A DNA stretch of 4,914 bases from a virus (IMGVR_UViG_2734482547_000011), one strand, 5' to 3'. Shown: positions 26-4,830, counted from the first letter of the stretch. The notes: generated from the letters alone by a model not told the origin. Numbers and translations: made by a program.

Positions 26-214
26 TTAAAAAAAGAACAAATGGTAGTGTCCGCTATTGCCAGTACACCTCAGGGTATAAGGGGTTATGGCCACCGGACT
101 ACCAAACGGCTGCCAGCCCTCTTTCAGTTTATGTGTCAGCTTTTCCGCAAGATCTGACGGCGGCGCCGCCCTGACAACATCATAGTGTTTAAATGCCATG
201 GTTCTTTCCACCAT
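26..214 (-). CDS. Small hypothetical phage protein (57-62 aa); possibly a conserved small lambdoid-prophage family, family name not confirmed
   Basis: ORF in six-frame track (MVERTMAFKHYDVVRAAPPSDLAEKLTHKLKEGWQPFGSPV...). An internal ATG at 197-199 (MAFKHYDV...) is preceded by GGTGGAAAG, a plausible SD, so the true start may be there. GC content is host-like, unlike the AT-rich DNA just upstream. Family assignment is from memory only. Confidence 0.45.
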   Translation of the reverse strand: MVERTMAFKHYDVVRAAPPSDLAEKLTHKLKEGWQPFGSPVAITPYTLRCTGNSGHYHLFFF

Positions 215-459: not shown

Positions 460-795
460 ATGAAGTGGATTGTGATTGATACAGTTATCCAGCCATCATG
501 CGGAATATCTTTTTCAGTCATATGGAGTAAAATAAAATTAATAATCTGGTATCAATCGGATGCTTTCTTACCTCCTGAAAGTATATTTACACTGACTCAC
601 ACAGGCATCATGCTCAATAACAAAGTGCTACCTGTAACCATTTACAACGTAGTACCATTCAATAAAACATTCTGGAATTCAATCAAAAATAGCCAGGAAT
701 GCCCTACAAATACAGATAACGTATTGAATGAATGCTTTAATAACCGTTGCACTCTGCAAATATGTCCTTATGGACTAAAACAACAAAGTCCATAA
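460..795 (+). CDS. Hypothetical orphan protein, 111 aa, AT-rich, with a Cys-containing C-terminal region (moron-like cargo gene)
   Basis: 336-nt ORF in roughly 30-35% GC DNA, where stop codons are frequent, so an open frame of this length is unlikely by chance. AAGGA lies 7 nt upstream of the ATG. It is transcribed opposite to the phage late operon. A perfect 20-bp palindrome follows 36 nt after the stop. The C-terminus has 4 Cys ([26 protein letters not shown]). I recognise no family. Confidence 0.45.
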
Positions 796-1706: not shown

Positions 1707-1783
1707 TGGCGCGCTGTACTGGATTCGAACCAGTGACCGATTGCTTAGAAGGCAATTGCTCTGTCCGGCTGAGCTAACAACGC
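1707..1783 (-). tRNA. tRNA-Arg (anticodon UCU), phage-encoded argU-like
   Basis: Minus-strand sequence GCGTTGT-TA-GCTC-AGCCGGACA-GAGC-A-ATTGC-CTTCTAA-GCAAT-CGGTC-ACTGG-TTCGAAT-CCAGT-ACAGCGC-G-CCA folds as a canonical cloverleaf: 7-bp acceptor stem (one G:U), TTCGAAT T-loop, anticodon loop CT-TCT-AA, encoded CCA. Confidence 0.85.
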
Positions 1784-1796
1784 TGAATACCGATAA

Positions 1797-1876
1797 TGGA
1801 CCGCCATCGGGGACCCGCCCCCGCACCAACAACCCTGTTATCGTGTCGTCTGCTCTTCCTGATAAGCTAATGGCGG
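1797..1876 (-). tRNA. Degenerate tRNA-like element (possible tRNA pseudogene at the middle position of the cluster)
   Basis: Perfect 7-8-bp acceptor-like pairing (ACCGCCAT...ATGGCGGT) followed by CCA, and a D-arm-like TAGCTTATCAGGAAGAGC, but no canonical anticodon stem-loop and no GTTCRANYC T-loop (GGGGCGGGTCCCC instead). About 4 nt longer than a standard tRNA. Confidence 0.3.
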
Positions 1877-1883
1877 TTTGTGA

Positions 1884-1959
1884 TGGTGGCCCTTGCTGGA
1901 TTTGAACCAGCGACCTGGCGATTATGAGTCGCTCGCTCTCACCACTGAGCTAAAGGGCC
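1884..1959 (-). tRNA. tRNA with CAU anticodon, most similar to tRNA-Ile2 (lysidine, reads AUA)
   Basis: Minus-strand GGCCCTT-TA-GCTC-AGTGGTGA-GAGC-G-AGCGA-CTCATAA-TCGCC-AGGTC-GCTGG-TTCAAAT-CCAGC-AAGGGCC-A-CCA; canonical cloverleaf with one A:C mismatch closing the anticodon stem. Closely resembles my recollection of E. coli ileX. A tRNA-Met assignment cannot be excluded from sequence alone. Confidence 0.8.
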
Positions 1960-1961
1960 GG

Positions 1962-1998
1962 GAGCAGAATAATAACGGTCCGTAATTAATTCCGCAAT
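1962..1998 (-). promoter_or_regulatory. Weak candidate promoter in front of the tRNA cluster
   Basis: On the minus strand: TTGCGG, 17-nt spacer, TATTAT, then 9 nt to the mature tRNA 5' end. The -35 hexamer is poor (3 of 6) and overlaps the terminator U-tract. Confidence 0.2.
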
Positions 1999-2022
1999 AA
2001 AAAACCCGCTCGGCGGCGGGTT
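1997..2022 (-). terminator. Rho-independent terminator downstream of the Q-like gene (tR'-like position)
   Basis: Minus strand reads AACCCGC-CGCCGA-GCGGGTT followed by TTTTTTATTG: a GC-rich 5-7-bp stem plus a six-T run, about 40 nt after the Q-like stop codon. Confidence 0.6.
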
Positions 2023-2061: not shown

Positions 2062-2916
2062 TTATGACGAATTTACCACAGATTCCGGAAAAATCAACCT
2101 AGTTACCTTTTTTAACTGCCGCTCAGCCCATGCTTCTTCAATATCAAACCGAGTCACCAGCGCATCATAGAATTTCTTAACTGTTTTTTCCCATGACGCG
2201 CGTGTTATCTGGTTTGTCACCTCGCATATAGCATTAAATGCCTCCGTTGATGGTAGTCTTTCATAGCCACGACCACCACAACGCTGGCAGTCTCTGATAA
2301 CAGGCATACCACGTTTTACCGACTCTTCACGATGAATGGCGACACCACGCCCACGGCAATCCTTACAGGCGGTGGAAACCTCACCCTTTCCGCCACACTC
2401 CGGACAGGCAACTTTTACCACCTCCCTGACTTTTTTCCATTCTTCCCAGTAAGACGGATACACACCTTTCGTACACTTTGCCCATACCGGCGGCTTACCA
2501 TCCGGATACTGGACCTTGTTTGTAAAAACTACGCTTTCAATAAATTTTTCCCCATAGCAACAAGGGCACTGCTTTTTACTCGCTGCGCTGCGGGCATAAT
2601 CCTCAAAAGCGTACGAAGCCATAATGCGCATCACTACCGGTTTTATTTCTGCCGGAAGTTTTCTCAACGCCGCCACACGATCGCACCGACTGAGTGCATA
2701 ATCTGCCAGTAATTCTGTTGCCCGCGCCCTGTCATTCATACTGATGCCCATTTTCCCCAGGAACGCAGAAAACCCCATCTCAGCCCGATTCTGTGTCATG
2801 CCCTGCGCGGCCATCACATCAGTGATACTCAGCGCATCTTTTGACGTTGAGGCCGATGCATCGGTCAGGCAAGGGGATTTTGGGGAGTAGTATTTCGGTA
2901 AATCTTCCAGTTTCAT
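2062..2916 (-). CDS. Phage late-gene antitermination protein Q-like, 284 aa, with three CxxC-G-x-G zinc-knuckle motifs
   Basis: Canonical ATG with a 4-nt ATGA overlap onto the rusA stop. Position (after rusA, before terminator and tRNA cluster) matches lambdoid Q. Motifs CPECGGKG, CKDCRGRG and CQRCGGRG indicate a zinc-binding domain. Functional call is from gene order and recalled family features, not a search. Confidence 0.6.
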   Translation of the reverse strand: MKLEDLPKYYSPKSPCLTDASASTSKDALSITDVMAAQGMTQNRAEMGFSAFLGKMGISMNDRARATELLADYALSRCDRVAALRKLPAEIKPVVMRIMASYAFEDYARSAASKKQCPCCYGEKFIESVVFTNKVQYPDGKPPVWAKCTKGVYPSYWEEWKKVREVVKVACPECGGKGEVSTACKDCRGRGVAIHREESVKRGMPVIRDCQRCGGRGYERLPSTEAFNAICEVTNQITRASWEKTVKKFYDALVTRFDIEEAWAERQLKKVTRLIFPESVVNSS

Positions 2917-3287
2917 TTTTTGACCTGCTCTTCATGCATTATGGGGTAAATCTTCACCCCCAGACGTCCACCAGATACTGGCTGACCACGAACGATATTG
3001 ATTTCATCAAACTGCTCATCGTCCATTAACACTCCCGCATGTGTCAGTGCATCCAGTGGTGCTTTCAGGATATTGTCCAGGTCACGACGGCGCTTATCCG
3101 GTGGCTCTGCAATAATCTTTATCGCCAGTCTTCCGGACAGGCTTAATTTCAGTCGCTGCTGACGGACAATAAGCGCCACATCCCGGCGATAACGCTCACC
3201 GGCTTTTGATACAAAATATGTGTTGTCACGACGTCGCCAGTAAGTATTCACCGTCGGCGGATAAGGTAAAATAAACTCATGGCGCAT
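2913..3287 (-). CDS. rusA: RusA-family Holliday junction resolvase (crossover junction endodeoxyribonuclease)
   Basis: 124 aa. Blocks LPYPPTVNTYWRRR, VSKAGERYRRDVALIV, PDKRRRDLDNILKAPLDALTHAGVLMDDEQF and SGGRLGVKI align with recalled E. coli RusA (LPWPPSNNRYYR..., [40 protein letters not shown]). Start ATG overlaps the upstream stop (TGATG). Confidence 0.88.
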   Translation of the reverse strand: MRHEFILPYPPTVNTYWRRRDNTYFVSKAGERYRRDVALIVRQQRLKLSLSGRLAIKIIAEPPDKRRRDLDNILKAPLDALTHAGVLMDDEQFDEINIVRGQPVSGGRLGVKIYPIMHEEQVKK

Positions 3288-3820: not shown

Positions 3821-4143
<323 letters not shown>

Positions 4144-4373
4144 NNNNNNNNNNNNNNNNNNNNNNNNNNNNNNNNNNNNNNNNNNNNNNNNNNNNNNNNN
4201 NNNNNNNNNNNNNNNNNNNNNNNNNNNNNNNNNNNNNNNNNNNNNNNNNNNNNNNNNNNNNNNNNNNNNNNNNNNNNNNNNNNNNNNNNNNNNNNNNNNN
4301 NNNNNNNNNNNNNNNNNNNNNNNNNNNNNNNNNNNNNNNNNNNNNNNNNNNNNNNNNNNNNNNNNNNNNNNNN
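4144..4373. other. Assembly gap (230 N)
   Basis: Uninterrupted run of N; the flanking sequences are both IS-derived repeats. Confidence 0.99.
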
Positions 4374-4464
4374 TAGACTGGCCCCCTGAATCTCCAGACA
4401 ACCAGTATCACTTAAATAAGTGATAGTCTTAATACTAGTTTTTAGACTAGTCATTGGAGTACAG

Positions 4465-4830
4465 ATGATTGATGTCTTAGGGCCGGAGAAACGCAGACGG
4501 CGTACCACACAGGAAAAGATCGCAATTGTTCAGCAGAGCTTTGAACCGGGGATGACGGTCTCCCTCGTTGCCCGGCAACATGGTGTAGCAGCCAGCCAGT
4601 TATTTCTCTGGCGTAAGCAATACCAGGAAGGAAGTCTTACTGCTGTCGCCGCCGGAGAACAGGTTGTTCCTGCCTCTGAACTTGCTGCCGCCATGAAGCA
4701 GATTAAAGAACTCCAGCGCCTGCTCGGCAAGAAAACGATGGAAAATGAACTCCTCAAAGAAGCCGTTGAATATGGACGGGCAAAAAAGTGGATAGCGCAC
4801 GCGCCCTTATTGCCCGGGGATGGGGAGTAA
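4465..4830 (+). CDS. insC: IS2 transposase OrfA (InsC), 121 aa
   Basis: Translation [56 protein letters not shown]... matches recalled IS2 InsC. True start is the ATG at 4465, not the upstream ATG at 4420 used in the ORF track. Confidence 0.9.
4782..4788 (+). promoter_or_regulatory. Programmed -1 ribosomal frameshift site A_AAA_AAG (IS2 OrfA to OrfAB)
   Basis: The heptamer A AAA AAG is in the insC zero frame, and the -1 frame continues open as [42 protein letters not shown] (InsD N-terminus). Confidence 0.8.

Follow-up and report, generated by a model that had tools for sequence, protein, structure and literature searches.

The tRNA-like element on the minus strand of the window at positions 1877 to 1797, with the RNA-sense sequence ACCGCCAUUAGCUUAUCAGGAAGAGCAGACGACACGAUAACAGGGUUGUUGGUGCGGGGGCGGGUCCCCGAUGGCGGUCCA, is probably a tRNA pseudogene, a degenerate allele of argN, which is the middle gene of the ileZ-argN-argO cluster found in lambdoid and Stx-type phages immediately behind Q and its terminator. 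The window is the complete 4,914-nt stretch of viral DNA (IMGVR_UViG_2734482547_000011) that was analysed. Homology, position, the loss of canonical features and relaxed constraint in the population are the basis of this reading, and the element is both tRNA-derived and devoid of features needed for function. An earlier note had put it at 1797-1876, which is the right place and one base short of the end at 1877 now found on the minus strand. The element and its parts, followed by its neighbours in the window, are:

1797-1877, minus strand: tRNA-like element, 81 nt including A(-1) and CCA, probable degenerate allele at the argN position (sequence, fold, alignments)
1870-1877, minus strand: acceptor 5' strand ACCGCCAU, A-1 plus positions 1-7, pairing perfectly with 1800-1807 (fold)
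1852-1867, minus strand: D arm, stem GCUU/GAGC with one U.G pair and 8-nt loop AUCAGGAA with G18 G19 (fold)
1824-1851, minus strand: aberrant 28-nt segment AGACGACACGAUAACAGGGUUGUUGGUG in place of position 26, anticodon arm and variable loop (fold, alignment)
1808-1823, minus strand: T-arm remnant, 5-bp stem CGGGG/CCCCG (1823-1819 with 1812-1808) and 6-nt loop GCGGGU (fold, alignment)
1797-1807, minus strand: acceptor 3' strand AUGGCGGU, U73 opposite A-1, then encoded CCA at 1799-1797 (sequence, fold)
1707-1783, minus strand: canonical tRNA-Arg(UCU), argO-like, downstream of the element (ARAGORN; Rfam 68 bits; argO in the 933W record)
1884-1959, minus strand: canonical tRNA with anticodon CAU, ileZ-like, upstream of the element (ARAGORN; Rfam 72.5 bits)
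1969-1997, minus strand: counterpart of pT, a putative tRNA promoter in 933W, with the sequence TTGCGG-17-TATTAT and its end some 10 nt ahead of ileZ (alignment with 933W)
2003-2022, minus strand: intrinsic-terminator-like hairpin with U run, tR'-like, downstream of Q (hairpin search; weak Trp_leader/isrK-like Rfam matches)
2062-2916, minus strand: gene for the late antiterminator Q, located upstream of the three-gene cluster (Pfam Antiterm PF03589, E=7e-55; 'antitermination protein' by PGAP in the homologous locus)
2913-3287, minus strand: rusA, upstream of the cluster

The minimum-energy fold pairs 1877-1870 with 1807-1800 in an 8-bp acceptor helix, made up of the canonical seven pairs from C1-G72 to U7-A66 and an extra A(-1):U73 pair, and the element has the 7-bp acceptor stem, discriminator and encoded CCA of a canonical tRNA (RF00005). 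A(-1) was found in all 61 alleles of a flank-anchored IMG/VR scan, although the spacer before it varies. U8 and A9 are present in the fold, and the D arm, UA-GCUU-AUCAGGAA-GAGC, has the stem length of 3-4 bp, the G18 G19, the U8 and the A14 of a canonical one, being 1 nt shorter than that of 933W argN and of the same length as in the chromosomal xtpA tRNA-like sequence. The canonical anticodon arm, with its 5-bp stem, 7-nt loop, U33 and anticodon, is missing; segment 1851-1824 folds as a 6-bp stem with an 11-nt loop or as a 7-bp stem with a 3-nt loop, and its 5' part, AGACGACA, is common to the element and the xtpA tRNA-like. In the T arm the stem is present, is homologous to that of argN and abuts the acceptor 3' strand, but the 7-nt loop T54-Psi55-C56-R57-A58 is lost, as GCGGGU replaces UUCGAGU and T54, Psi55 and A58 are gone. 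The fold bore out what had been noted of the perfect 8-bp acceptor pairing, the CCA and the retained D arm, and the aberrant 28-nt segment agrees with the claimed lack of a canonical anticodon. The T arm had been called unrecognisable, which is right for the lost loop and wrong for the 5-bp stem, which is intact.

ARAGORN found only the two flanking tRNAs in the window, with no call, no anticodon and no tmRNA at the element. The Rfam tRNA model left the element unmatched at E<=10, both in the whole window and in a 99-nt search, and the gathering threshold of that covariance model (29 bits) was not reached; a standard cloverleaf with a T loop, which by the earlier note would have refuted the observation, was found by neither program. 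The positional counterpart in the Stx2 phage P8983 scores 54.8 bits on the same model. Other curated Rfam families, searched at permissive thresholds with the window and the 99 nt, gave a 9-bit chance match as the sole result. An 8-bp inverted repeat is estimated to arise by chance in 4.9 kb about 0.08 times per spacing, or about twice over spacings 50-80. Because the inverted repeat is not beyond chance and the fold is thermodynamically unexceptional, with a z-score of only -1.6, the reality of the tRNA-like element at 1797-1877 rests on homology, and sequence comparison confirmed it.

In the GenBank record of the Stx2 phage 933W (AF125520) the order of features is Q, pR', terminators, pT, ileZ (AUA), argN (CGH), argO (AGA) and stx2, and this is matched in the window by Q, terminator, tRNA-CAU, element and tRNA-Arg(UCU). 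The argN of 933W and of P8983, a tRNA-Arg(UCG), lies where the element does, flanked by ileZ and argO and with Q upstream. It has identical acceptor strands, including A(-1) and U73-CCA, and the same D stem and T stem, and 62 positions are identical between the element and 933W argN in alignment. In contrast to argN, with its 5-bp anticodon stem, anticodon loop CUUCGAA and T loop UUCGAGU, the element has neither loop, and the UCG anticodon in a functional cloverleaf is absent from it. Since slot and alignment agree, the element is a positional and sequence homologue of argN. The assignment to the middle slot of an Stx-type three-tRNA cluster, between a CAU tRNA and tRNA-Arg(UCU), was thereby upheld, and the suggested alignment to the middle tRNA of Stx phages did find similarity, in the argN of 933W and P8983.

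All tRNA-related features of the window lie on the minus strand, with spacers of 6 nt from the ileZ CCA to the element and 13 nt from the element to argO. The CAU tRNA is a tRNA-Ile reading AUA, as its homologue is labelled tRNA-Ile by PGAP and the 933W record gives ileZ with the codon AUA. The pT block (TTGCRG-17-TATTAT), annotated for 933W at L240 1583-1611, is kept in the window, where the putative homologue stayed below the threshold of the promoter scan. The cluster region matches Escherichia phage mEp460_ev081 at 100% identity and occurs widely among prophages of E. coli. Downstream of the cluster, a member of the STnc100 sRNA family was matched at 821-1010 on the minus strand (Rfam, 132 bits, E=5e-30), located downstream of a small DUF3927 ORF at 1076-1207; STnc100 also occurs in locus L069. 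On the opposite strand of the late region, at 460-795 (plus), there is an ORF equivalent to one that PGAP annotates as anti-adapter protein IraM, for which Pfam gave no match in the window, and it is adjoined by a truncated DUF1737 ORF at 26-214 (minus). Upstream of rusA, at 3879-4830, where related prophages have a DUF968 gene, insertion-sequence fragments were found, one encoding the C-terminal portion of an IstB-like ATPase and the other being an ORF for an HTH transposase of the IS3 family, and the prophage is therefore interrupted there.

Forms intermediate between argN and the element were found in other phages. The middle element of the Stx2e phage phiP27 (AJ298298) and that of IMG/VR locus L036 are in the same position and carry the aberrant anticodon-arm segment base for base, the phiP27 counterpart being identical to the element at 76 of 82 aligned positions. 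Both keep the canonical T loop UUCGAGU where the element has GCGGGU, and the T stem of phiP27 contains a single G.G mismatch; the phiP27 record names only ileZ and argO and leaves the middle element unannotated. Locus L069 has the reverse combination, an otherwise canonical tRNA-Arg(UCG) with a normal UCG arm and the same broken G-rich T loop as the element. Each lesion of the window allele can thus occur without the other, L036 and phiP27 carrying one and L069 the other, and in these sequences this fits stepwise decay plus recombination. The 'tRNA-Pseudo-TTG' of Yersinia phage YeP1 (MK733259) is a tRNA-like relic with a related body that stands right after Q in a lambdoid late region. Its anticodon stem CGAUAAC/GUUGU is also found in the aberrant segment of the element; unlike the element, it has a normal T loop, a 7-nt loop CAUUGCC in which position 33 is A, and C7-G66 instead of U7-A66, and the order differs in that it precedes the CAU tRNA. 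The arm of the window allele looks like a further degenerated version, in which a 3-nt loop sits on a YeP1-like stem, CGAUAAC/GUUGUUG. Prophage attachment sites of E. coli K-12 hold other non-functional tRNA-derived fragments (e.g. ptwF, pawZ and pauD). Those are duplicated 3' pieces made by integration, whereas the element appears as a full-length gene decayed in place within a phage genome. A literature search on ileZ/argN/argO, on lambdoid tRNA pseudogenes and on yahM plus tRNA returned nothing on the element.

The state of the middle slot was investigated in IMG/VR with a scan anchored only in the two flanking tRNAs, which recovered 61 different middle sequences from about 120 loci; together with a second scan, about 240 related loci were covered. 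The window allele is the commonest single allele of the flank-anchored scan (19 loci) and makes up about 27% if close variants are included. In 117 complete clusters ARAGORN called ileZ 116 times and a tRNA-Arg(UCU) at the argO position about 112 times, but a middle tRNA only 80 times. When a strict test was applied, requiring no stem mismatch, a T loop TTCRANY and U33, an intact middle cloverleaf with canonical T loop remained in only 46 of 125 clusters. Judged by these sequences the argN slot is dispensable in general, and it decays by several independent routes. Besides the window type these are an A58G type, a type of 66 nt that has lost its anticodon arm, and a type with two C.A mismatches in the acceptor. 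Two alleles of the A58G type (a01 and a03, in loci such as L019 and L008; about 20 loci) combine A58G in the T loop with a T-stem A.C and an acceptor A.A mismatch, and ARAGORN still calls them tRNA-Arg(UCG); routine annotation takes them as functional, although they are probably pseudogenes in disguise. In phage PPompW_EH2201 (L002 1594-1669) and two IMG/VR loci the middle tRNA is called tRNA-Lys(UUU), with C33 instead of U33, a compensatory change of U7-A66 to C7-G66 and an acceptor G3.U70 pair. G3.U70 is the classical alanine identity element, and this middle tRNA may be either another pseudogene or a potentially mischarging tRNA.

By BLAST, a copy at least 90% identical to a 100-nt segment was found in about 1,790 of the searched E. 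coli complete-genome records, 1025 of them at 99% identity or more. The window allele is present in about one third of complete E. coli genomes and is always unannotated, PGAP having placed no annotation at the element in any listed genome.

Constraint was assessed within the window-type lineage by the second scan, anchored on the spacer variant and the flanking tRNAs, which gave 123 loci with 21 middle alleles. The G run of the former T loop (1813-1823, minus strand, in the window) was found in lengths of 4, 5, 6, 9, 10, 11 and 12; long runs are linked to U8>G and have the look of a slippage-prone homopolymer, part of which may be sequencing error. The acceptor stem is broken without compensation in several alleles (AUGACGG, AUAGCGG, AUGGCGA and CCGGCAU), further variants have 1-nt deletions in the T stem, U8>G or loop substitutions, and stem-breaking variants amount to about 30 of the 123 copies. 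No compensatory pair changes or covariation were seen in the middle element among the 21 alleles and 123 loci. Of these 123 loci, 109 have an identical ileZ, and the variants of argO are mostly structure-preserving, namely wobble-to-Watson-Crick changes, variable-loop changes and one compensatory double change in the T stem. Disruptive argO variants also exist, with two rare T-stem breaks and a CCA>CUA change in 18 of 123 loci; the latter allele (CTA in the DNA) would need repair by the CCA-adding enzyme to function. The contrast between the element and its flanking tRNAs is one in the kind of change and not in the amount, and it comes from few independent events. The evidence for relaxed constraint on the window-type element, from few events in a modest sample, is good but not conclusive, and within that sample the pattern is the one expected of unconstrained evolution.

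The view of the earlier note that this may be a decaying tRNA gene is the one that has prevailed, as the element goes undetected by ARAGORN and Rfam, its loops are destroyed, its stem breaks are uncompensated and its homopolymer varies. What speaks against a pseudogene is that the window allele is very common and that the majority form of the window type retains perfect acceptor and T stems and the CCA. As a pseudogene, the element would have inherited its acceptor helix, D arm and T stem from argN, the anticodon arm having been replaced by a non-decoding segment. The loss of the T loop and the anticodon loop would leave it with no tRNA elbow, no displayed anticodon and no part in translation; because there is no T54-A58, no Psi55/C56 to meet G18/G19 and no anticodon loop, it should be unable to decode. 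It is most likely co-transcribed with ileZ and argO from the late promoter or from the putative tRNA promoter. From what is known of tRNA processing in general, the acceptor/T-stem minihelix with its CCA could be excised by RNase P and 3' trimming, and the excised element would presumably be a short-lived by-product that is degraded, with ileZ and argO maturing normally. A retained function of the element is unsupported.

The body of the element has a chromosomal relative. Nearly every E. coli genome has by BLAST an 80%-identical copy adjoining yahM (L124 2507-2588), which agrees with the element in its acceptor strands, in its shortened D loop and at the junction GGAAGAGCAGACGACA; ARAGORN gives it as an odd 'tRNA-Ser(GGA)' and Rfam makes no call. 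In the K-12 record xtpA (b4845) is annotated across it. xtpA has been described as a leaderless mRNA with a tRNA-like sequence (Muto et al. 2022, J Biochem 171:459, as cited by RegulonDB v12, PMC10767902). The chromosomal relative is already described, the phage allele is simply unannotated, and pseudo-tRNAs are a known kind of sequence. The first 34 nt of the xtpA tRNA-like are identical to the phiP27 form and differ by 1 nt from the window form (ACCGCCAUUAGCUCAUCAGGAAGAGCAGACGACA), and the phiP27-type element combines this xtpA-identical start with a phage-like T arm. The sharing between phiP27 and xtpA suggests recombination or common descent. A resemblance of the xtpA tRNA-like to phage or island tRNA-Arg was reportedly noted by its describers. 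The element and the xtpA tRNA-like also have the same acceptor 3' strand, CCA, shortened D loop and additional nucleotides at the junction of D and anticodon stems, where the element, with AGACGACACG, has extra nucleotides relative to the AGACG of xtpA. Unlike the element, the xtpA tRNA-like is chromosomal, has its own sigma-70 promoter, lies inside a 60-codon ORF without flanking tRNAs, and combines a normal T loop, UUCGAGG, with an anticodon position that holds a 7-bp stem and a 6-nt loop. A GcvB/aminoglycoside phenotype has been reported for xtpA. The element lacks the marks of an xtpA-type leaderless mRNA (own promoter, start codon at the 5' end, ORF through the tRNA-like). The XtpA-equivalent frame in the window has no start codon, is preceded by ileZ and runs on through the tRNA genes, and a coding role was rejected, the open frame being merely a translation of three tRNA genes. 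The xtpA promoter block was absent from phages, and IMG/VR yielded no phage copy of either the chromosomal-type T arm or the Salmonella-type arm. That the xtpA leader is a decayed ileZ was likewise rejected, as 857 of 2000 shuffles scored as well in local alignment, and the alignment of the downstream flank of xtpA with argO was not significant either.

The loci compared for xtpA were L124 2392-2608 (xtpA/yahM) and L127-L146. In them the 82-nt xtpA tRNA-like shows no variation among E. coli, E. albertii, E. whittamii, E. ruysiae and Escherichia sp. E1V33 and a single change in Shigella, and the leader beside it has about 20 variable columns. Codon 4 of the XtpA frame is a stop in E. albertii, in E. 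whittamii and in one divergent E. coli; the frame of E. whittamii is shifted in addition, and that of E. ruysiae has lost its ATG. Within E. coli the tRNA-like is identical in 93% of genomes compared with 57% for the neighbouring 82 nt. By comparison of these sequences, the peptide alone does not seem to account for how well the xtpA tRNA-like is conserved. Relatives that share the body and carry other arms occur in Salmonella diarizonae/arizonae, Citrobacter, Pseudocitrobacter and Buttiauxella, a body identity that is partly imposed by the search pattern. The genes of S. diarizonae/arizonae and Citrobacter amalonaticus (L128 2761-2835, L136 4309-4383, L145 1-75) have a 5-bp stem of ACGAC or AUGAC with GUUGU and a 6-nt loop C-N-GGA-W, in which ARAGORN reads a 2-nt 'anticodon' gg, and two of the Salmonella/Citrobacter relatives reach about 38 bits on Rfam. 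These three lie in island-like contexts, with an integrase fragment and the isrN sRNA near that of L128. The genes around the Salmonella, Pseudocitrobacter and Buttiauxella relatives differ from case to case (an integrase fragment, IS200, unrelated metabolic genes), and no functional lead came from them.

An unlikely alternative is a neofunctionalised tRNA-like RNA, the body of which would be retained for a task other than decoding, for example to regulate or to serve tRNA-binding enzymes or tRNA-targeting nucleases as a decoy or ligand, with an anticodon arm that is free to vary or under diversifying pressure. The body is near-identical in phages and chromosomes and the arms are varied (UCG, UCU, UUU, UUC, 6-nt C-N-GGA-W, A33, 11-nt loop), the xtpA tRNA-like is invariant over its 82 nt in Escherichia even where the XtpA frame is broken, and the window allele is frequent. 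Because of that invariance, the shared body can be under selection in another context. However, the uncompensated acceptor and T-stem breaks and the slipping G run are the opposite of a maintained structure, covariation was not seen, the body identity in the genome scan is partly due to the search pattern, and the T loop that most tRNA-binding proteins need for elbow recognition is gone. It is similarly improbable that the element belongs to a family of non-decoding tRNA-like RNAs with one invariant body (8-bp acceptor, D arm, T stem and CCA), a free-running arm and a role at the RNA level as decoy, ligand or processing handle. One pointer to such a family is that the xtpA tRNA-like stays invariant where the XtpA frame is destroyed. 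If it were true, recombination would have exchanged the phage copy with the chromosome, and that copy would be a member that is still active or was inactivated recently.

The earlier note had also considered a structure kept as a processing signal or as an integration target, and neither use gained positive support, with no insertion in about 240 loci and no covariation. For the former, the acceptor/T minihelix and CCA would be kept for maturing the 3' end of ileZ and the 5' end of argO from a polycistronic precursor. The acceptor/T minihelix is a minimal RNase P substrate, and it is this minihelix (acceptor plus T stem) and the CCA that have survived best; with spacers as short as 6 and 13 nt, a deletion could disturb the processing of the neighbours. 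A processing module is nevertheless doubtful, as clusters exist with a 66-nt middle element without anticodon arm or with the 1-nt spacing of the PPompW type, as each flanking tRNA is itself a full substrate of RNase P/RNase E that should need no neighbour, and as the stem breaks affect about a quarter of copies (about 30 of 123). An attB-like target for another mobile element is very improbable. tRNA genes, often their 3' halves, are common integrase targets and relatives in Salmonella lie near an integrase fragment, but argO directly follows the element in all of the phage and prophage loci covered, and no duplicated 3' half was found nearby. That the element is a functional tRNA which decodes with an unusual anticodon arm, such as an expanded loop or a frameshift-type decoder, can practically be set aside. 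It has the encoded CCA, the perfect acceptor stem and the D arm with GG, but an anticodon loop of 7-9 nt with U33 is missing, T54, Psi55 and A58 are absent from the T loop, the covariance model scores it below detection, and the length of the G run is polymorphic.

Taking the element as an argN pseudogene, about one third of complete E. coli genomes carry an unannotated relic between two annotated tRNAs, and a further share of the 'tRNA-Arg(UCG)' calls in lambdoid prophages would be hidden pseudogenes with A58G and stem mismatches. These annotation gaps and hidden pseudogenes therefore bear on phage tRNA counts and on codon-supply arguments for Stx phages, as argN would frequently be dead and ileZ and argO kept. 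The points on annotation and evolution leave the current understanding of phage biology unchanged. Through intermediate or mosaic alleles (phiP27, L036 and L069) the element links phage argN to the xtpA tRNA-like, and this series offers a concrete case of decay, recombination and exaptation of a phage tRNA gene.
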